DNA of 64,000 bases, taken from NCBI RefSeq assembly GCF_003991155.1, contig NZ_CP031294.1; one strand, written 5' to 3'. Position 1 is the first letter of the stretch. The number at the start of each line of letters is the position of its first letter. Origin of the DNA: Escherichia coli (GTDB lineage: Bacteria; Pseudomonadota; Gammaproteobacteria; Enterobacterales; Enterobacteriaceae). A model generated the notes under the pieces. That model made no database searches, was not told the origin of the DNA, and saw only the letters and a list, made by a program, of their open reading frames with translations. Below, piece after piece: positions 2,454 through 49,709 of the stretch. The position numbers and the translations under genes are program-made.

Positions 2454-3206
2454 TTAATCTTTTAGGTATAAACCTACTGGAGTTCTTGTTTTGCGGGAGA
2501 TGATAAGTACGATAAATTTCTGAACGTTAACTTGCACTTTGTTTGGGAGCCAAGAGCTTAACTCTGCATCAAGCAACAATCCTCTGTTCCACGGCAAAAA
2601 TCCGGTTTCTTTCCCCATCCCGTACTCACCTAACACATCTTCGAACGTTTCTGTTTTGGCATTGTATATACGCACATCGCCGGTTCGCATGAGAGGCCCT
2701 GCCCAGATCTTAGCACCAGGAATGGTTTGTGTATCGTCGCAGACTAAATGCTCATACCAATGAAGAAGAAAGAGATAGGTACGGTGACACAATCCTCGCT
2801 GACGACGCTCTCTGACAGTTTCGACACCAGCTACCTGGTAACATTCGATCTCATTACCGTCTTCAACAAAACTATATTCACGCAGAGCTATCCTACCAGC
2901 GATCGTATTTTTGTTTTCGTCCAGAAGCCCGGACTGGAGCACCTCTTTGATAATCTCTTCTTCAGGGGCATCTTCATCCGCTCGATCTAAGATGAATTCG
3001 CTCAGGTCGCCTTGGTCGCGCGCACCTACACGTTCCATAGAGACATACAGGCAAATGTCATCTTCTGGTTCAATGATTTCAATTTCTGAGATTTTATAGA
3101 GGTAGGCTTCATTGATAAGAAAGCCAAAACGAACAACACGAGTCTCCCCTTTATGAGGAAACTCGCTTAGATCTTTTGAATATGCGCTATCTAGTGTAGG
3201 AGCCAT
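2454..3206 (-). CDS. hypothetical protein (250 aa)
   Basis: Long ORF overlapping the upstream gene by 16 nt and followed by a terminator. No motif recognised. Confidence 0.6.
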   Translation of the reverse strand: MAPTLDSAYSKDLSEFPHKGETRVVRFGFLINEAYLYKISEIEIIEPEDDICLYVSMERVGARDQGDLSEFILDRADEDAPEEEIIKEVLQSGLLDENKNTIAGRIALREYSFVEDGNEIECYQVAGVETVRERRQRGLCHRTYLFLLHWYEHLVCDDTQTIPGAKIWAGPLMRTGDVRIYNAKTETFEDVLGEYGMGKETGFLPWNRGLLLDAELSSWLPNKVQVNVQKFIVLIISRKTRTPVGLYLKD

Positions 3207-37617: not shown

Positions 37618-38142
37618 ATGACAACCAAAGATATTACCTACGGTATCCAAGCTGAACTCTGGCCGCGAGATTACACTAACGTTGAAAAACTACTGATGTT
37701 CTGGCGCAGAGAACAAATTCCTGTAAGGGTCACTCTCGAAGATGGCCAGGCGTTTTGCATGTACGTTTATGGCCTCATGCCATCTCGTAACAAAGTTGAC
37801 CTTTGCCCAGCCCCTTTTGACAAAGAAAATCGTATAAGGCTCCCACTTGAACGCATTAGTACAATTGAATCAGGTGTGGTTGACAGTATCGCTCACGATT
37901 TCAAAGGTCGACTAACAGTTCACCCTGATTATGTCGATAATCGGCCATCACGCCGCGATTTTTTTGCAATTTGCAACCAAGCCTACAAAGCAAACAAATC
38001 TATAAGGGTGTACATGGCGGATGGCCGTGAAATTGAGGGGGTGTCAGCAGGCGCAGATGCTTGTCAGGTTACACTACGTGTCGAGAACGGTAGAAAAATA
38101 GTTGTTTTGTTCGATTGGGTTGAACGAATTTTGCCTTTTTGA
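37618..38142 (+). CDS. hypothetical protein with two Rof-like/Sm-like repeats (tentative)
   Basis: Start set to ATG 37618, 4 nt after the upstream stop. Two segments fit the pattern (I/V)xVxxxDGxxxxGxxxxxxxxxxVxLxxxxxxxxxxLxxIxxI. The Rof assignment comes from memory and is weak. Confidence 0.4.
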   Translation: MTTKDITYGIQAELWPRDYTNVEKLLMFWRREQIPVRVTLEDGQAFCMYVYGLMPSRNKVDLCPAPFDKENRIRLPLERISTIESGVVDSIAHDFKGRLTVHPDYVDNRPSRRDFFAICNQAYKANKSIRVYMADGREIEGVSAGADACQVTLRVENGRKIVVLFDWVERILPF

Positions 38143-39892: not shown

Positions 39893-39897
39893 AATCG

Positions 39898-39922
39898 AGC
39901 GCCCACTATGGGCGCTTTTTTC
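39898..39922 (+). terminator. rho-independent terminator
   Basis: AGCGCCC-actat-GGGCGCT followed by TTTTTT. Confidence 0.8.
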
Positions 39923-39940
39923 GTTTCCAATACTTCCACA

Positions 39941-40087
39941 ATAACGCGCCATTGATGGCGCGTTTTTTATTGTCTTTAACTCACTCCAACAACATAAAAA
40001 TAAGCGCCAAAATAACGCCATAAACGCGCTTTTATATCCTTACCAGTACATACCCATTACTTAACACATTAACGCGCTTAAAACGCG
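39941..40087. repeat. cluster of ATAA(N)CGC(G/C) repeats, including three tandem 11-mers
   Basis: aaATAAGCGCC/aaaATAACGCC/ATAAACGCGC at 39998-40029. Further copies at 39941, 40068 and 40078. Confidence 0.6.
39943..39969 (+). terminator. second tandem terminator
   Basis: AACGCGCCA-ttga-TGGCGCGTT followed by TTTTAT. Confidence 0.7.
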
Positions 40088-40210
40088 TTATATTGCGCTA
40101 TAGCGTATGGTTAATCATTGGCTTTTAGTCTTGCTATGTGATCCGCGTTTATTTGTCGGCGCGGATCGGCATTTTGTTTTGTTCCGTATCCGCTCGCGTA
40201 TTATGTGCGC

Positions 40211-40256
40211 GTGATTTTTCACATAATCACACCACTTAATCACGTATGTGATTATG
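40211..40256. repeat. operator-like set of four GTGATT/AATCAC hexamers
   Basis: GTGATT(40211) AATCAC(40225) AATCAC(40238) GTGATT(40248). The outer 9-bp inverted repeat is CATAATCAC/GTGATTATG. A GATC-bearing inverted repeat GATCCGCG-n12-CGCGGATC lies nearby at 40140-40167. Confidence 0.55.
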
Positions 40257-40380
40257 CTACGAAAGAAATCTGGATGTCTCAGGCGACGAAAGTCATCATA
40301 ATTTTCCCCGCTCGCCTGTCCGACAACCGCTGGTTGGATTCCACCAGCTTCCCGATGTTTTTTTCTACATAAAGGCGAAT

Positions 40381-40500
40381 GCAGCCGTTTCCCGAAAAAA
40401 TCCTGGCCGTTTCCCGTCGGCTCATGAATACGTTCCTCGCCGTTTCTGAAAATTTCCCTGCGGCAGCTGGTGGCTATAGAGAAAGGGCCGTTTCTGGCCC
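40381..40500 (+). repeat. iteron-like array A (core GTTTCCC / CCGTTTC)
   Basis: aGCCGTTTCCCGaaaa, gGCCGTTTCCCGtcgg, aCGTTCCTCG, CCGTTTCTGaaaa, TTTCCCTGcgg and gGCCGTTTCTGG. The first copies are spaced 22 bp apart. Confidence 0.6.
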
Positions 40501-40509
40501 TCTTCTCAG

Positions 40510-41077: not shown

Positions 41078-41160
41078 GCGGTAGCCGGACGGGAACAGGT
41101 GGGTTTGTCGGTTGCCTGGAGGTAAGAGGTTGGTGTTTTTAGCCTGCGGGAAACAGGATG
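41078..41160. repeat. about 70-nt module (copy A of a duplicated segment) with two inverted GTT(T)CCCG cores
   Basis: gCGGTAGCCggaCGGGAACAGGTGGGTttgTCGGTtGCCTGgaggtaAGAGGTTGGTgTTTTT aligns at about 75% by eye with 44712-44790. CGGGAACAGG and CGGGAAACAGG are reverse complements of the iteron core. Confidence 0.55.
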
Positions 41161-41167
41161 GTCATTT

Positions 41168-41191
41168 AAGGCCACCAGCATTGGTGGCCTT
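41168..41191 (-). terminator. 10-bp-stem hairpin containing a Chi octamer
   Basis: AAGGCCACCA-gcat-TGGTGGCCTT lies just downstream of the stop at 41197. It contains CCACCAGC. Confidence 0.55.
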
Positions 41192-41196
41192 AATCT

Positions 41197-41478
41197 TTAG
41201 TGGAGCAGACCGATGTCGATGGTATCCCCTGAATCATCCACACGGATCATCAGCATGGCAAAGGCGTTTAGTGGATAGCTTGCGTGCCATTCAGGGAAGC
41301 GGTCATCTCGCATGAAGTCGGCAATGTCGTAAACGCATCCCTCAAAGTGGAAGAATCGCGTGCTTACCTGCTCGTCATAATCCACATGATCCATTTCTTG
41401 CTGTTCTGTTTCCGGCAAGTCCAGCCATGATTCAAGAAATACATTTTGTGCTTTAGGGGTAATGGTGAAATCAGTCAT
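41197..41478 (-). CDS. hypothetical acidic protein (93 aa)
   Basis: Trimmed to ATG 41478 (GAGGA 8 nt upstream), because the E-type module lies inside the longer ORF-track call. Confidence 0.6.
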   Translation of the reverse strand: MTDFTITPKAQNVFLESWLDLPETEQQEMDHVDYDEQVSTRFFHFEGCVYDIADFMRDDRFPEWHASYPLNAFAMLMIRVDDSGDTIDIGLLH

Positions 41479-41638: not shown

Positions 41639-41662
41639 AAGACCACCAATGCTGGTGGCCTT
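41639..41662 (-). terminator. hairpin, sequence-related to 41168-41191, containing a Chi octamer
   Basis: AAGACCACCA-atgc-TGGTGGCCTT. It contains GCTGGTGG. Confidence 0.5.
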
Positions 41663-41667
41663 AATAA

Positions 41668-41811
41668 TTATCGCCCGATTACGCTAAGGATCTTTTCCTC
41701 AACTGATTTGTTGTTGCGACTAAACTGCCTTGCGTATCTGATGACAGAAGAGGCGTTTTGCTTTCTGACCATCTCGGCTCTTTCCTTCAGGCGTTTCTTG
41801 AAATCGCCCAT
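41668..41811 (-). CDS. small basic ORF (47 aa), below the ORF-track cutoff
   Basis: MGDFKKRLKERAEMVRKQNASSVIRYARQFSRNNKSVEEKILSVIGR. The ATG lies 2 nt after the stop of 41814..42188, so the two are coupled. Confidence 0.35.
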   Translation of the reverse strand: MGDFKKRLKERAEMVRKQNASSVIRYARQFSRNNKSVEEKILSVIGR

Positions 41812-43292: not shown

Positions 43293-43622
43293 TTACTCGA
43301 ATACTTCAAGAAACTCCTGAACGTCCCAATGCTGGACAAGGTGAAGATAGACCTTAGAAATAACATCATTCTCGCTATCGCATGTGAAGTAGTACTTCTG
43401 GCTGCGGTTGTATGTGTCCACACAAAATTCGCTCATATCCATAAAGTCAGCATCTTCACCCATGTCGCAAATCATCAAAGCAGGTGCGTCATCACGAGTC
43501 ATCAGCTCAAGCACCCACCGCGAATTGATCAGAGTGGAAGACCAACCTTCTAACTCATAAAACTGATCAAACTCTTTTTGAGTTAATTTCTTGATTTGGT
43601 TGATGTCGATATTTGCAAACAT
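43293..43622 (-). CDS. hypothetical acidic protein (109 aa)
   Basis: Trimmed to ATG 43622 (AAGGA 7 nt upstream): MFANIDINQIKKL... Confidence 0.55.
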   Translation of the reverse strand: MFANIDINQIKKLTQKEFDQFYELEGWSSTLINSRWVLELMTRDDAPALMICDMGEDADFMDMSEFCVDTYNRSQKYYFTCDSENDVISKVYLHLVQHWDVQEFLEVFE

Positions 43623-43634
43623 AAAGCAATCCTT

Positions 43635-43667
43635 AAACAACATGTTTTCTTGATGGTGTTATTATCG
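43635..43667 (-). promoter_or_regulatory. E-type promoter/leader module
   Basis: The gene strand reads TGCGATAATAACACCATCAAGAAAACATGTTGTTTAAGGA. Confidence 0.55.
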
Positions 43668-43985
43668 CAATAACGCACAGGTGAAAAAGGATTTTATTCC
43701 GGTGAATGTGGTTTTGGCAGTGAGTTTTCAGGTTCAGTACCGAGTACACTTTTTACATTATTCTGATTTAGTGGCCGAAGGTGGCTGGTGGGCAGAATAA
43801 TCCTCTCCCCGAAAACCTACTGAAATCGATTGTGACCCGTTGGCTGTCTGGCACAATTACGCTGTAACTGGGCATTCAGAGGGAATCCAGCGGTAAGTAA
43901 GTTCGCCTGCACGTGAGCGCCTCTCTTCTTCCCGCACATTACAGGTGGGTAGCCGCAACTCTCCCTCTCGCTATACCGGTACGCC

Positions 43986-44121
43986 GCCGTTCCTGAACCG
44001 GCATCGAGCCTTCTCCCGAAATCCACACAGGCAACTCGACCGTTTCCCTGAAAACCTCCAGCCGTTCCCCGAAGGCAACCCAGCCGTTTCTGTAGCGGGA
44101 TGCAACCTTTTCCCTGTATGG
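43986..44121 (+). repeat. iteron-like array B: six direct repeats at about 22-bp phasing
   Basis: GCCGTTCCTGAAcc, gCCTTCTCCCGAAAtcc, gaCCGTTTCCCTGAAAAcc, aGCCGTTCCCCGAAgg, aGCCGTTTCTGtagc and aaCCTTTTCCCTGtat. Starts at 43986, 44008, 44039, 44061, 44083 and 44105. Confidence 0.7.
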
Positions 44122-44175
44122 ACCGAAGGCTGACCGTAGGGGTGTTACGGGGGATAAAATCAGGAGTTGAATAAA

Positions 44176-44203
44176 TACGAAAAAGGAGGCGACACCCCTC
44201 CTT
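44176..44203 (-). terminator. rho-independent terminator ending the non-coding unit
   Basis: Minus strand: AAGGAGG-ggtgtcg-CCTCCTT followed by TTTCGTATTT. Confidence 0.7.
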
Positions 44204-45035
44204 CTCTCCCCACTTATACATACCTGGCTTCTTCGCTATACATGTTGTGTTTTATTCGTGTTTTATCTGTCTCAACCTCTCTATGGACGTTAATACTCAC
44301 TCCTTCCAGAACGTTCTATACGGCGACTAATTCTGTTGGTGAATTGGGTGTGTTGTTCTCTCTGTCGGTGTATGTGGTTTCGTTCGTTTTGCGGTGGTTC
44401 TTCTATGGGGTGTTCTCGTCGTTTTGGTGATTGTTCTTCTCCGTGTATGGAGTAATGGCAGGTGGGCGATTCCTTTCGTTATTGTGTTTGAGTTGTTTGT
44501 CTGGAGTGCGTGAAGGGCTTTTGTAGTTATTCGTGTGTTGGGTAATGGCGTTTCCCGTGATTGTTCTGTTTCGTGTCTTTTGGGATTGAGAGAAACCTTG
44601 CGGTTACAGGCTTCGTTGGGGTTTCAGTGATTCTGGTGTTTCTTCGCTGTTTGGGTAATGGCGTGTCGTGGGTATCGCGCGTATGGAAGTTTCGAATTGC
44701 CTGTGAAAGTTAGGTTGGTTGTCCGGTAGCCTGAGAAGAAGAGGTGGGTCTTTTCGGTAGCCTGCCATAAAGAGGTTGGTTGTTTTTGGTAATGGCATAT
44801 GTGTTATTTAGTTGTTTTGTTATGCCTGAAAATAAGTTGTTTATATGGTTATGTAACGCAACGGGAACGATTTTGAGCGTGTGTTTTTGTTGGTAGTGTG
44901 TTGGGTCGTCTGTGGTGAAAATTGGACGCTGTGGCGCTGTCTGCTGCGTAGAATTACGGGTATAAGCAGTGATGTGTGAAAACGTCAATTTTTTAGACCA
45001 AATCGGGTGAAAGCGTTGATGTTTCGTTGATCTGT
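44204..45035 (-). ncRNA. candidate about 830-850-nt A/C-rich non-coding transcript
   Basis: Bounded by an E-type module variant (45041-45069) and a terminator (44176-44203). The plus strand is about 70% G+T by eye, so the RNA would be A/C-rich and G-poor. No ORF has an SD. Internal degenerate repeats are present. Confidence 0.4.
44452..44796. repeat. dispersed GGTAATGGC repeats within degenerate 90-130-nt units, plus copy B of the 70-nt module
   Basis: G(G/A)GTAATGGC at 44452, 44541, 44654 and 44788. GTGATT(G/C)T.. recurs three times. 44549-44557 carries a GTTTCCCG core. 44712-44790 aligns with 41078-41150. Confidence 0.6.
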
Positions 45036-45040
45036 TATTC

Positions 45041-45069
45041 AGTTGTTTTCTTATTGGTATAAACAACTG
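45041..45069 (-). promoter_or_regulatory. E-type module variant with a split palindrome
   Basis: CAGTTGTTT-tcttattggtat-AAACAACTG (9-bp perfect inverted repeat). It shares TTGTTTTCTTATTGG with 59088-59119. No CDS follows. Confidence 0.4.
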
Positions 45070-45176
45070 TAACCTATTGATATTTAAGGATGTGATTCCA
45101 GGCATGGAAGGGGAGTAGTGGCGATCAACGGATTCTTATAGAAAAGAATCAAATTGTGACCGCCATTATCAATGTT

Positions 45177-45911
45177 TTACTTAGTTTTGTTTAGCAGAGA
45201 GAGAATTTCATCACTAATTTCACTCGCCTGTTTGATAGCCAATGCAGTTACCTCTTCTATGGTTGGTGACTGTTGATGCTCATATTTGGTTTCGGTTATG
45301 ACAATGTGTTCTTCACCAGAATTTGCGCATAGTGCCGCATTGACGATAAGGTTTGAGTAAGAATTTAGCAGAGCACTGTTGATGAACGCTTTCACGGTAT
45401 TACTGTCTGCACCAAATACATCTTTTCTGACCGCTTCAGCCTCACAGCGAACCCCTGCAGCAACATCGTGAAGAACATGTATGGCCTTGGAGCTTGTTTG
45501 TTCACAGTACTCAATCATTATTGTCGAATTGTTCTGTTCAACAAACGATCTGATGCCTGACGATTTACCCATAGCATCGAAGGCAGCGTGACCCGCACTA
45601 GTAGAGATATCTTCATAGAGTTCTTCATCGCTATCTTTTTCTTCAGGTGTCGAGGTGTCTTCATCGTCGTAATAGATATTGCCTTTAATCAGTGTCTTGG
45701 ACACTTGATATAAACAATAAGAAACGAGATTTAAGCATTGGATTTTAGCTGTATTGTCCTTTGTCGCCTCGCTATTCAGTTCTTTCGCTTCTTCAGTAAG
45801 GCTGTTGATAAGACTTTGTATTTTTTCCAACGCGTTAGGTGCACACTCCGCGTTGTCCATAAAGAATTTATAACCAGTCCCAGGGATTTCTAAACTTTTC
45901 AACTTTTTCAT
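45177..45911 (-). CDS. hypothetical protein (244 aa), lower GC
   Basis: Long ORF with a degenerate E-like sequence upstream (45926-45952). No motif recognised. Confidence 0.6.
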   Translation of the reverse strand: MKKLKSLEIPGTGYKFFMDNAECAPNALEKIQSLINSLTEEAKELNSEATKDNTAKIQCLNLVSYCLYQVSKTLIKGNIYYDDEDTSTPEEKDSDEELYEDISTSAGHAAFDAMGKSSGIRSFVEQNNSTIMIEYCEQTSSKAIHVLHDVAAGVRCEAEAVRKDVFGADSNTVKAFINSALLNSYSNLIVNAALCANSGEEHIVITETKYEHQQSPTIEEVTALAIKQASEISDEILSLLNKTK

Positions 45912-46417: not shown

Positions 46418-48451
46418 TTACTTAACCTGGTGGCCTGGTTTAGCACCAGCATCCGGGCTTAACAGGAAGATATCTTTCCCGCCGGGGCCAGCAGCCATCA
46501 CCATGCCTTCGGAGATACCGAAGCGCATTTTACGCGGAGCCAGGTTAGCCACCATAATGGTGTGACGACCAATCAGTGCCTGTGGGTCTGGATAAGCAGA
46601 ACGGATGCCTGAGAAGACATTACGCTTTTCACCACCGAGATCCAGTGTCAGACGCAGCAGTTTGTCAGAACCTTCGACAAACTCCGCGTTTTCAATCAGC
46701 GCCACACGCAGGTCAACTTTGGCGAAGTCGTCAAAGGTGATGGTTTCCTGAATCGGGTCGTCAGCCAGTGGGCCAGTTACCGGTGCAGCTGTGGCTTTCA
46801 CTTCTTCTTTGGATGCTTCCACCAGTGCTTCCACCTGTTTCATATCGATACGGTTATACAATGCCTTGAACGGATTCACTTTATGGCCCAGCAGCGGTTG
46901 CTGGATACCATCCCAGGTCAGTTCTGTATTCAGGAATGCTTCTGCACGTTCAGTCAGTTTCGGCAGTACCGGTTTCAAGTACGTCATCAGCACGCGGAAC
47001 AGGTTAATGCCCATAGAGCAAATCGCCTGCAGATCGGCATCGCGTCCTTCCTGCTTCGCCACCACCCACGGAGCCTGTTCATCGACATATCGGTTAGCCA
47101 GGTCAGCCAATGCCATGATTTCACGGATAGCTTTACCAAATTCGCGGCTTTCCCATGCTTCGCCAATCACTTCAGCGGCATCAGTAAAGGTTTTGTACAG
47201 TTGCGGGTCAGCCAGTTCGCTTGCCAGCACGCCGTCAAAACGCTTGTTGATAAAGCCTGCATTACGGGAGGCCAGGTTAACCACTTTGTTCACGATATCG
47301 GCATTCACGCGCTGAACGAAATCCTCCAGGTTGAGATCGATATCATCAATGCGCGAAGAGAGTTTCGCAGTGTAGTAGTAACGCAGGCTGTCGGCGTCAA
47401 AATGATTCAGCCAGGTGCTGGCTTTAATAAAGGTGCCGCGAGACTTGGACATCTTCGCGCCGTTCACCGTCACATAGCCGTGAACAAACAGGTTGGTCGG
47501 CTTGCGGAAGTTGCTGCCTTCCAGCATGGCAGGCCAGAACAGGCTGTGGAAGTAAACAATATCTTTACCGATGAAGTGGTACAGCTCGGCTGTGGAGTCT
47601 TTCTTCCAGTATTCATCGAAGCTGGTGGTATCGCCGCGCTTGTCGCACAGATTCTTGAAGGAACCCATGTAGCCAATCGGCGCGTCCAGCCAGACGTAGA
47701 AATATTTGCCCGGCGCGTTCGGAATTTCAAAACCGAAGTAAGGCGCATCGCGGGAGATATCCCACTGTTGCAGGCCGGATTCAAACCACTCCTGCATTTT
47801 GTTCGCCACCTGCTCCTGCAACGCACCGCTGCGGGTCCATGCCTGCAACATTTCGCTGAAAGAGGGCAGATCAAAGAAGAAGTGTTCGGAATCACGCATT
47901 ACCGGGGTAGCGCCAGAAACCACCGATTTCGGCTCGATCAATTCAGTCGGGCTATATGTTGCGCCGCAGACTTCACAGTTATCGCCGTATTGATCTGGCG
48001 CTTTACATTTCGGGCAGGTGCCTTTCACAAAACGATCCGGCAGGAACATGCCTTTTTCCGGGTCGTACAACTGAGAGATAGTGCGGTTTTTAATAAAACC
48101 GTTCTCTTTCAGGCGAGTATAGATAAGCTCAGACAGCTGGCGGTTCTCTTCGCTGTGCGTCGAGTGATAGTTGTCATAGCTGATGTTAAAGCCTGCGAAA
48201 TCAGTCTGGTGTTCCTGACTCATTTCGCCAATCATCTGCTCCGGTGTGATACCAAGCTGCTGTGCTTTCAGCATGATCGGCGTACCGTGGGCATCGTCGG
48301 CACAGATGAAATTAACCTCGTGGCCGCGCATTCGCTGGTAACGAACCCAGACATCAGCCTGGATGTGCTCCAGCATATGGCCGAGGTGGATTGAGCCGTT
48401 AGCGTACGGCAGCGCGCACGTCACCAGAATTTTCTTCGCGACTTGGGTCAT
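46418..48451 (-). CDS. metG: methionyl-tRNA synthetase
   Basis: 677 aa from [29 protein letters not shown]. Has KMSKS and the C-terminal tRNA-binding domain. Near-identical to E. coli/Salmonella MetRS from memory. The ORF-track start at 48580 is an upstream in-frame extension. Confidence 0.97.
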
Positions 48452-48608: not shown

Positions 48609-49709
48609 ATGAGCGAGTCCAAATCGCCGGATGCCCTGAGAGCAATGGTAGCCGGTACGCTGGCTAATTTTCAGCACCCAACCCTGAAACACAACCTGAC
48701 TACGCTTAAAGCGTTACACCATGTTGCGTTGATGGATGACACACTGCATGTCGAACTAATCATGCCTTTCGTGTGGAATAAGCCTTTTGAAGACCTGAAA
48801 GAGCAATGTAGTGGTGATCTGCTCCGTATCACTGGCGCAAAGGCTATTGACTGGAAGCTGTCGTACAACATTGCCACGCTTAAGCGCGTCAAAAACCAAC
48901 CAGGCATTAATGGCGTTAAGAACATTATCGCCGTCAGCTCAGGCAAGGGCGGCGTGGGTAAATCCTCCACGGCGGTAAACCTGGCACTGGCGTTGGCTGC
49001 TGAAGGTGCGAAAGTTGGTATTTTGGATGCCGATATCTATGGTCCATCAATTCCAACCATGCTGGGCGCGGAAAACCAACGTCCAACCTCACCTGACGGT
49101 ACTCACATGGCACCTATCATGTCTCATGGCCTGGCAACCAACTCTATTGGTTATCTGGTCACCGACGACAATGCAATGGTGTGGCGTGGACCGATGGCCA
49201 GCAAGGCGCTGATGCAGATGTTGCAGGAAACTCTATGGCCTGATCTGGACTATCTCGTTCTCGATATGCCGCCGGGCACTGGTGATATTCAGTTGACGCT
49301 GGCGCAGAACATTCCTGTAACTGGTGCGGTTGTGGTAACTACGCCGCAAGACATCGCGCTGATCGATGCGAAGAAAGGCATTGTGATGTTCGAAAAAGTC
49401 GAAGTGCCGGTACTGGGTATCGTCGAAAACATGAGTGTGCATATTTGCAGTAACTGCGGTCATCACGAGCCAATTTTTGGCACCGGTGGCGCACAGAAAC
49501 TGGCCGAGAAATACAACACGCAGTTGTTAGGCCAAATGCCACTTCATATCTCTCTTCGTGAAGATCTGGATAACGGAACACCAACCGTTATTAGTCGTCC
49601 AGATAGCGAATTTACGGCTATTTATCGTGACCTCGCAGATCGCGTTGCCGCCCAAATGTATTGGCAAGGTGAAGTAATACCTGGCGAAATCGCATTCCGC
49701 GCAGTGTGA
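48609..49709 (+). CDS. apbC: Fe-S cluster carrier ATPase Mrp/ApbC
   Basis: 366 aa. P-loop SSGKGGVGKS and the CSNCGHH motif. Divergent from metG, as in enterobacterial chromosomes. Confidence 0.95.
   Translation: MSESKSPDALRAMVAGTLANFQHPTLKHNLTTLKALHHVALMDDTLHVELIMPFVWNKPFEDLKEQCSGDLLRITGAKAIDWKLSYNIATLKRVKNQPGINGVKNIIAVSSGKGGVGKSSTAVNLALALAAEGAKVGILDADIYGPSIPTMLGAENQRPTSPDGTHMAPIMSHGLATNSIGYLVTDDNAMVWRGPMASKALMQMLQETLWPDLDYLVLDMPPGTGDIQLTLAQNIPVTGAVVVTTPQDIALIDAKKGIVMFEKVEVPVLGIVENMSVHICSNCGHHEPIFGTGGAQKLAEKYNTQLLGQMPLHISLREDLDNGTPTVISRPDSEFTAIYRDLADRVAAQMYWQGEVIPGEIAFRAV

Follow-up and report, generated by a model that had tools for sequence, protein, structure and literature searches.

The window considered here is a 64,000-nucleotide (nt) stretch of Escherichia coli DNA (contig NZ_CP031294.1) which, judged from its sequence, belongs to a phage-plasmid of the SSU5/pHCM2 type. 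The subject of the analysis is a gene-free tract of this element, and the 1.6 kb around the tract are 99.9% identical to the E. coli plasmid pEC17CM6_2 (110,667 bp; a window position is the position in this record minus 32,000). They share 97% identity with Cyrano, a phage-plasmid of E. coli LF82, and 68% with the Salmonella phage SSU5. The genes of the element lie nearly all on the minus strand. To the right of the tract is a gene for a protein of 244 amino acids (aa) without assigned function, and to its left is a row of small early genes, running leftwards from position 43622, in which no recognisable domains were found. In every clade, the tract occupies the junction between the variable cargo (accessory or moron genes) and the conserved early genes, with the upstream gene directed into it in most clades. 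It is among the most conserved non-coding features of the SSU5-type phage-plasmids, with a strand bias far more extreme than anywhere else in the element, and it is read here, tentatively and with less than even confidence, as a cis-acting non-coding control region or hub of the DNA, probably tied to lytic replication or its control, rather than as the gene of a stable RNA in the lysogen.

The coordinates of the tract and its features are collected in Table 1. The RefSeq annotation places no coding sequence between positions 43623 and 45176, and starts the gene on the left at 43622, rather than 43643. A preliminary description, made from the sequence alone, had recognised no real gene between 43644 and 45176, which agrees with the annotation, the codon phase, the indels and the protein searches, once the left bound is moved to 43623. 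In an alignment of 27 non-redundant homologues, the variable sites have no codon-phase bias in any ungapped block (p 0.45–0.99), and 104 of the 493 pairwise indels (21%) are divisible by three. There is no 3-nt periodicity in the tract, and tblastn searches of it with the neighbouring proteins returned nothing (all E > 0.09). Open reading frames (ORFs) of at least 40 aa are frequent on both strands because the skewed composition depletes the stop codons. A protein-coding gene or a pseudogene was rejected on these grounds.

Table 1. Features of the gene-free tract and its borders, in window coordinates. Expression values are from the S1 Table of PMC9928086 and are given as fragments per kilobase per million mapped fragments (FPKM) or as log2(FPKM+5), in which 2.32 is zero.
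Feature	Position	Strand	Description
Whole gene-free tract	43623–45176	no strand	Between two minus-strand genes; syntenic and without genes in every SSU5-like phage-plasmid examined
G+T-rich tract	44207–44960	no strand	69.5% G+T on the plus strand
Canonical E-type module of the gene starting at 43622	43636–43690	minus	-35-like element, GATAAT, leader/operator CAAGAAAACAnnTTGTTT, ribosome-binding site
Chi site GCTGGTGG	43784–43791	plus	Position kept in most clades
Iteron-like array	43800–44130	plus	About eight repeats of (G/A)CC(G/T)TT(T/C)CC(C/T)G; GC-rich (55–60%)
Hairpin H2	44183–44203	minus	Intrinsic-terminator-like; stem AAGGAGG/CCUCCUU, then UUUUCGUAUUUAUU; terminator scan and folding
Repeat unit TTCTTCTCCGTGTATGGAGTAATGGC	44431–44459	plus	Further copies end at 44549, 44662 and 44796; every clade has 3–5 copies in each element
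Three tandem units of about 31 bp	44699–44785	plus	(C)GGTAGCCTG-N8-AGAGGT(G/T)GGT; duplicated at 41078–41165
AT-rich patch with orphan operator-like palindrome	44816–44845	no strand	AAACAAnTTGTTT in other clades, AAATAAGTTGTTT here; no accompanying promoter
Promoter-like TTGACG-17-TTATAC(CC)	44958–44990	minus	Conserved; -10 without the invariant -7 T; not called by the promoter scan
CGTTGAY box cluster	44983–45174	both	Direct copies at 45014 and 45025 (11-bp spacing); inverted copy at 45124; degenerate copies at 44983 and 45168
E-type leader copy	45041–45069	minus	No -10 element and no gene after it
Hairpin H1	45120–45164	minus	Immediately follows the stop codon (45177–45179) of the gene upstream; outer stem GGCGGUCA/UGAUCGCC, including a G-U pair
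CYRAN_102, upstream gene	45177–45911	minus	FPKM 45–590
CYRAN_103	44711–45067	minus sense	2.32 in both LB samples, 2.7–4.3 in the other eight (FPKM 0–14)
CYRAN_104	43817–44221	minus sense	FPKM 0.5–20
CYRAN_105, downstream early gene	43293–43643	minus	FPKM up to about 200–220, in macrophage samples

In the minus sense, the G+T-rich body comprises 40% A, 30% C, 14–15% G and 15% U, and the plus strand is 67.2% G+T over positions 44176–45069. The G+T content of 750-nt segments averages 49.9 ± 3.0% across the whole window and peaks at 71% in the tract, with the next region reaching 59%; the G+T-rich body, at 69.5%, stands 7 standard deviations above this mean. The preliminary estimate of a plus strand with roughly 70% G+T, and of an A/C-rich and G-poor minus sense, was therefore accurate. 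The GC skew of the tract ranges from +0.3 to +0.5 and the AT skew from -0.3 to -0.6, and the C/G ratio in the minus sense is 1.99 over 909 nt. When runs are defined by a minus-sense C/G ratio of at least 1.5 and no more than 18% G in every 78-nt window, the longest in the 110-kb plasmid lies here (704 nt, 44300–45003), and the runner-up has 266 nt. No intrinsic curvature or 10.5-bp phasing was found in the G+T-rich body.

Homologous tracts are present in 833 plasmids of the PLSDB database, from at least six genera (Klebsiella, Escherichia, Enterobacter, Salmonella, Citrobacter, Cronobacter and others), in 244 complete E. coli genomes, where they are always plasmid-borne, and in 12 phage records, and all 833 plasmids retain both the architecture and the full length. 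Eleven divergent elements share a common layout, with 400–700 nt on the left that are GC-rich (55–60%) and mildly C-rich, followed on the right by 700–800 G+T-rich nt. The skew persists where the sequences no longer align, with a G+T fraction per 200 nt of 0.64–0.80 in all 11 elements, unalignable segments included. The recurrence of the two-part architecture and of the skew in every clade examined is, on this comparison, not a matter of chance. The tract is 67% identical to that of SSU5, and the adjacent early genes are 67–83% identical, so that its divergence is, by these identities, no greater than that of its coding neighbours. Several 20-nt bins are conserved at 0.93–0.97 among 27 representatives. 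No natural deletion variants were found, and the apparently partial BLAST matches proved to be complete tracts or tracts with an extra small gene at the left. Scans of genome and viral collections with the conserved motifs returned SSU5-like elements, with Kluyvera added to their hosts, and chance matches, and no distant relatives; a literature search found no paper describing the region.

Recent polymorphisms within the E. coli clade oppose the bias of the G+T-rich tract, with 34 changes from G/T to A/C versus 19 from A/C to G/T, and the corresponding numbers in the remainder of the gene-free tract are 23 and 35. Their polarity was assigned by parsimony from 22 sequences of this clade and three outgroups, and the counts are small. 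As the polymorphisms erode the bias, they suggest that it is maintained by selection, rather than by an ongoing mutational pressure.

Five families of short repeated motifs lie in or beside the tract: the iteron-like repeats, the GTAATGGC units, the 31-bp tandem units, the CGTTGAY boxes, and the orphan copies of the operator and leader of the early genes. The best four iteron-like repeats start at 44040, 44062, 44083 and 44105, a spacing of 21–22 bp, with weaker copies back to 43803, and the TTC/TCC periodicity of the array is 10.6–10.7 nt, above the 95% level of the null. The array thus has the arrangement of iteron origins, with at least three direct repeats of a 17–22-bp unit in helical register, and its repeats are conserved across the clades. 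It sits just outside the segment 44176–45069 that was delimited in the preliminary description, which had placed a single iteron core inside; this core is present (GTTTCCCG at 44549), and the real arrays are the one at 43800–44130 and a second array of the same motif at 40290–40500, which lies between convergent genes, 3.6 kb away.

This second array, in which the CCGTTTCCCG repeats of 43800–44130 recur, lies in a 600-bp non-coding region (39894–40509) that also has inverted repeats (TGTGATTAT/ATAATCACA), repeats of the AACGCG type and two terminators on the plus strand. The region is itself a candidate for an origin or a control locus. The plasmid origin oriR, or a copy-control locus of RepA, was also considered for the tract itself and rejected, since the RepA iterons are of the unrelated ATCCACTATAGAGAG type and lie with repA at position 1 of the plasmid record, about 34 kb away.

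The other motifs noticed earlier were recovered as well. The marker repeat GTAATGGC occurs four times in the tract, as three exact copies of GGTAATGGC and one of AGTAATGGC, the GTGATT units were located, and in the minus sense the repeat units read as three or four copies of GCCAUUACYC...GAAGAA. The duplication of a 70-nt segment, first placed at 41078–41150, was found again between 41079–41167 and 44712–44786 (70–76% identity, E = 1e-8). Among 96 viral contigs, the 31-bp motif is essentially confined to these two homologous places, and at both it lies 600–900 bp to the right of an iteron-like array. The CGTTGAY boxes, five in number and in both orientations, form the sole such cluster in the plasmid, and the two copies that are degenerate here are intact in other clades. 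A single match resembling a site for IHF, at 45167–45179, was spotted by eye only.

The orphan leader copy belongs to a motif (E-type) that precedes at least ten genes of the plasmid when read on the minus strand. In its complete form, it consists of a -35-like hexamer, 17 nt, GATAAT, about 9 nt, AAGAAAACAAnTTGTTT, a ribosome-binding site and ATG, and AAGAAAACAAnTTGTTT contains the 13-bp palindrome AAACAAnTTGTTT; by this layout, the module is a predicted early promoter with its operator and leader. The arrangement GATAAT-N9-AAGAAAACAAnTTGTTT stands ahead of many small genes and of a ParA-like gene, at window positions 2320, 41020, 41505, 43158, 43642, 46277 and 59095, and the same module is found at record positions 3098, 30577 and 102034. 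A hidden Markov model (HMM) of ten canonical modules matches positions 45069–45041 of the tract (E = 2.8e-5, score 13.5 bits, as against 5.9 for the best of 200 shuffles). The module variant reported there in the preliminary description is thus homologous, and it retains the leader half alone, as GATAAT is replaced by TTGTTT here, by GCCAAT in the SSU5 clade and by GCACAT or CACATA in the Klebsiella clade. Judged by these replacements, the copy does not qualify as a sigma-70 promoter in any of the clades. The notion that the repeat units of the tract are degenerate E-type promoters was rejected, as the model matches this one site in the tract. In plasmid p09EL50, an extra gene of 216 nt has been inserted between duplicated E-type modules to the left of the tract, which suggests, by analogy with the PeSL elements of T4-type phages, that the modules may act as recombination joints.

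Another reading is that the tract has no present function, and is made up of decayed early-gene cassettes, or is a mutational footprint, for example of long single-strandedness. The duplicated and shuffled modules nearby, such as those around the extra small gene of p09EL50, and the leader copy inside the tract that has no gene of its own, are consistent with such an origin. The full length in every related plasmid and a divergence like that of the coding neighbours argue against it, as do the failure of the repeat units to match the module HMM, the lack of any protein-level remnant, and a bias which persists across genera even as recent polymorphism erodes it. A lack of present function is considered a very unlikely explanation.

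At the level of RNA, the only conserved features of the tract are two hairpins, H1 at its right end and H2 towards its left, both of them on the minus strand. H2 folds into a stem of 7–10 bp followed by UUUUUCGUAUUUAUU, and has both the G+C-rich hairpin and the U tract of an intrinsic terminator; scan and folding thus agree with the terminator that had been pointed out at 44176–44203. Every clade has a hairpin here, with a stem that shifts in register and is held partly by G-U pairs. The U-rich tail persists in the clades of E. coli and Klebsiella, and is weaker in the SSU5 clade (GUAGAAAUUC). The outer stem of H1 encloses an inner stem that is kept in three different versions among the clades. 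Both are more stable as minus- than as plus-strand RNA, H2 in 26 of 26 distinct homologues and H1 in 14 of 16. This comparison was made strand against strand within each sequence, because the stem of H2 shifts in register among the clades.

Stranded RNA sequencing (RNA-seq) bears directly on the earlier claim of a minus-strand transcription unit. The study of LF82 re-analysed the data set GSE154648 on the Cyrano genome, at 97% identity to the window, in ten samples of lysogens that include two from LB medium and others from macrophages (PMC9928086 S1 Table). The annotation of Cyrano contains two spurious minus-sense ORFs inside the tract, CYRAN_103 and CYRAN_104, which can be used as readouts. 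Minus-strand RNA from the upstream gene extends no more than about 110 nt past its stop codon before the signal reaches 0, at H1. In lysogens the tract itself is silent, and transcription resumes from the promoter that belongs to the early gene downstream. The earlier interpretation is upheld only in part: the claim of a transcription unit, for which the lack of a minus-strand transcript had been named as a refutation, is refuted for lysogens (FPKM 0–14 in the ten samples), and the copy-control or decoy RNA envisaged along with it is contradicted for the same state by the expression data and the missing promoter.

The sequence of the putative RNA leads to the same view. No match to Rfam was found in the tract at E ≤ 1, and a known RNA family was rejected. 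The conserved structure for which the preliminary description had proposed a covariation search did not appear outside the two hairpins when RNAalifold was run in sliding windows over the 27 representatives, with a structure conservation index (SCI) that did not exceed 0.42 for the plus and 0.30 for the minus strand. Neither an own promoter, nor a transcript in the lysogen, nor a conserved structure or family, the three marks of a gene for a non-coding RNA (ncRNA), was found. The motif GGA occurs 7 times versus 6.8 expected, and conserved hairpin loops are absent, which argues against a sponge of the CsrB or CrcZ type. The toxin MazF cleaves RNA at ACA, and both an ACA-rich decoy for it and a GGA array of the CsrA type were rejected for want of meaningful enrichment.

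The minus-sense RNA is essentially unstructured (-7 to -14 kcal/mol per 120 nt), and comprises at least 80 nt of C-rich, G-poor, unstructured and untranslated sequence, as is typical of rut sites. Composition, folding and non-coding status all fit the earlier proposal that such an RNA would be a substrate for Rho. A redundant, one-way insulator could be built from these parts, with H1, a long Rho-loading zone and H2 acting in series to stop the read-through of moron genes into the repressed early genes. The position at the cargo junction in every clade, with the upstream gene mostly reading inwards, is in line with this arrangement, and the cargo genes are expressed in lysogens, up to about FPKM 5000 for the S24 peptidase and up to 590 for CYRAN_102 (PMC9928086), with RNA at zero so soon beyond. 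The record length of the C-rich, G-poor run, its weak folding, and a composition that is conserved more strictly than the sequence would also be explained. However, the signal has already gone at H1, before the strongly skewed part is reached, so that the Rho zone is not needed. Known Rho terminators need 80–200 nt, far less than the 750 nt present here. An insulator would leave the conserved repeated motifs, including the blocks at 93–97%, without a role, and the tract is kept in the Klebsiella elements, in which the neighbouring gene points away from it. Insulation as the principal function is judged unlikely.

The samples cover lysogens rather than the lytic cycle, and an ncRNA of the lytic or infection phase is a possible, if doubtful, alternative. 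It would be an A/C-rich minus-strand transcript of 750–950 nt, activator-dependent or antiterminated, which starts near 44955 or arises by read-through of H1 and ends at H2, and which could serve as an origin or primer transcript beside the iterons, or as a sponge for Rho, Hfq or the FljA/Hfq-like protein of the element. The conserved H2, with its U-rich tail and its strand-specific stability, closes the tract on the appropriate strand. The block 44950–45069 is conserved at 0.85–0.95, and contains a perfect -35 (TTGACG), an upstream CGTTGAT tandem with its copies one helical turn apart, and the early-gene leader copy. Among the gene products of the element are RNase H, a UvsW-like helicase and RecA, which in T4 accompany origins primed by R-loops, and the element also carries the gene of a full-length FljA-family protein (PF03614, with a weak Hfq match) 6 kb away. 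Against such a transcript, a sigma-70 -10 is conserved at neither candidate start, the promoter scan called no sigma-70-type site in the tract, and the -35 is itself one of the five CGTTGAY boxes, in inverted repeat with another. The FPKM stays at or below 14 even in the macrophage samples, in which neighbouring early genes rise 10-fold or more, the RNA has no conserved structure or covariation outside the two hairpins and no excess of GGA, and Rho would terminate it unless it were protected. In its boldest form, the RNA would titrate Rho, or Hfq together with the FljA/Hfq-like protein, during the lytic cycle, as a device for global antitermination or derepression that is perhaps coupled to origin firing. 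We know of no RNA-based device of this kind in phages, and it is regarded as very improbable.

A transcript of the opposite strand, G/U-rich, might instead act in trans as an antisense RNA to the early-gene leaders, through TTGTTTTCTTATTGG (the complement of the leader), or as the transcript of an R-loop origin. The GC skew would favour R-loops in rightward transcription, leader complements lie at 45043 and, in other clades, at 44816, and gene-level counts for minus-sense features may miss plus-strand reads. However, no plus-strand promoter or terminator was called in the tract or is conserved, both hairpins are weaker on this strand, the SCI reaches 0.42 at most, and the complementarity extends over just 15–29 nt. 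This explanation is given hardly any weight.

A control region that acts as DNA is therefore the reading tentatively preferred here. The five motif families, their helical phasing, the twin iteron array, the conservation at the level of coding sequence and the independence from RepA fit a site of nucleoprotein assembly. H1 would end the minus-strand transcription that arrives from the accessory genes on the right, and any RNA that leaked past it, being unstructured, untranslated and richer in C than in G, would become a substrate for Rho and then meet H2, so that the tract would be kept free of transcription in the prophage-plasmid state. The repeated motifs may then assemble DNA-binding proteins of the phage, of the host or of both, in a locus that would take part in lytic replication or in the control of it. 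The locus would be an origin itself, or else the partner, in a control of the handcuffing type, of the iteron cluster at 39.9–40.5 kb. The keto bias might reflect a strand-specific use of single-stranded DNA, by a single-strand-binding initiator, a primase or a recombinase, or in a displaced-strand intermediate.

Several points weigh against this proposal. No gene for a binding protein or an initiator was recognised among the small neighbouring genes. No DnaA box was seen in the tract, nor a long AT-rich unwinding element; its GC content is 40–48%, and the AT-rich patches of low stability (60–80 bp, at 44780–44860 and 45020–45100) resemble ordinary early promoters. The cumulative skew of the whole plasmid does not mark the site and is uninformative as an indicator of origins, and we know of no type of origin with a keto-skewed tract of 750 bp. 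A well-kept H2 at the downstream end would imply that transcription crosses the tract under some condition, and the RNA-seq samples are all of lysogens.

In large IncFIB/IncHI1B plasmids of Klebsiella, its right third (about 44640–45170) is fused to DUF262 and type I restriction-modification (R-M) genes and flanked by insertion sequence remnants, and the same DUF262 and type I R-M cargo follows the tract in the SSU5-like elements of Klebsiella. An independent occurrence was rejected in favour of a recombined fragment of such an element, and a piece of phage-plasmid has thus moved, together with its defence cargo, into conjugative plasmids. In the clade of SSU5, Salmonella and Enterobacter, the left end of the tract is taken up by a small plus-strand ORF of 80 aa, with the E-type module on one side of it and the iteron array on the other (L003, 6130–6372; L013, 1595–1837; L014, 1519–1761). 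The E. coli and Klebsiella clades lack this ORF.

Other parts of the element are also of interest. In addition to RNase H, RecA and the UvsW-like helicase, it encodes its own Pol III alpha, helicase and primase. Beyond the gene to the right of the tract are full-length, host-type copies of metG, which encodes methionyl-tRNA synthetase (46418–48451, minus strand), and apbC/mrp (about 48609–49709, plus strand), carried aboard the phage-plasmid; after them come genes for the S24 LexA-like peptidase, for Pol III theta and for a type I R-M system. Lysogens of Cyrano express apbC and the S24 peptidase well, but not metG (PMC9928086).

On the other side of the tract, the 174-aa protein at 37618–38142 (plus strand) is annotated as a transcriptional regulator or repressor in Cyrano and SSU5, and is the full-length member of PF03614 mentioned above (E = 1.5e-84), with its Hfq-domain match at aa 120–162 (E = 7e-4). 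FljA is the repressor of phase-1 flagellin, and acts on the translation of the fliC mRNA. The protein of the element could repress the flagellin of the host or, alternatively, bind the leaders shared by the early genes, and it is expressed in lysogens at an FPKM of 13–270 (PMC9928086).

The Chi octamer (GCTGGTGG) occurs 15 times in the window versus 1.4 expected. Its copies between 2006 and 32127 are nearly all on the minus strand, and plus-strand copies predominate from 36608 onwards, as far as 47621. The change of orientation between 32127 and 36608 points to a switch of polarity near the divergent region of the ParB-like and helicase genes. Two near-identical hairpins that resemble bidirectional terminators, at 41168–41197 and 41640–41668 (AAGGCCACCAGCATTGGTGGCCTT and a variant), each have a Chi octamer within the stem, in opposite orientations.

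Clinical Klebsiella, E. coli, Enterobacter and Salmonella commonly contain phage-plasmids of the SSU5/pHCM2 type, which carry genes for resistance and defence. To our knowledge, almost nothing has been established about the switch of these elements from plasmid maintenance to lytic replication. If the tract were a lytic origin or control locus, it would provide a handle for studies of copy number and induction, and for typing; if it were to encode an RNA of the lytic phase, this would be an unusual one. In either case, the tract should not be annotated as a regulatory RNA expressed in lysogens.

Among known systems, the protein-sponge RNAs, such as CsrB/RsmZ and CrcZ, are similarly long, non-coding and rich in short repeated motifs, and the A-rich minus sense of the tract recalls the CrcZ motifs. 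The motifs of the tract, however, do not lie in hairpin loops, GGA is not enriched, and there is neither a lysogen RNA nor a conserved structure. Origin and primer transcripts, such as RNA II of ColE1 and the R-loops of T4 oriF and oriG, share with it a non-coding stretch of several hundred nt that leads towards a putative origin with repeats, and the element has genes for RNase H and for a UvsW-like helicase. RNA II has extensive structure and forms its hybrid through G-rich RNA, whereas the minus-sense RNA of the tract would be unstructured and G-poor, has no evident promoter and is not seen in lysogens.

The likeness to Rho terminators and rut sites, such as lambda tR1, is apparent from the minus sense of the sequence, with its C/G ratio of about 2, its A/C-rich composition like that of rutA and rutB, and its unstructured and untranslated course directly after a stop codon. 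The tract differs in being about five times longer than needed, in its conserved repeated motifs, and in the fact that transcripts end upstream of its most skewed part. The repeats of the G+T-rich body do not match the profile of the E-type modules, and it is these modules which are comparable to the PeSL modules of T4-type phages, as they combine a promoter with a conserved leader or palindrome ahead of many small early genes, and flank an inserted gene in a relative.

The iteron origins and control loci, including incC/incA of P1, incB/incC of F, the lambda origin and T4 oriE, differ from the tract in having no counterpart of its 750-bp keto-skewed body. Here, no adjacent cognate initiator has been identified, the repeats are unlike the iterons of the element's own RepA, and neither DnaA boxes nor a clear AT-rich unwinding element were seen. 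The tract and these loci are alike in their short direct repeats at about two helical turns within non-coding DNA, in the presence of two separated arrays of one motif, and in the sites for other factors that lie nearby.

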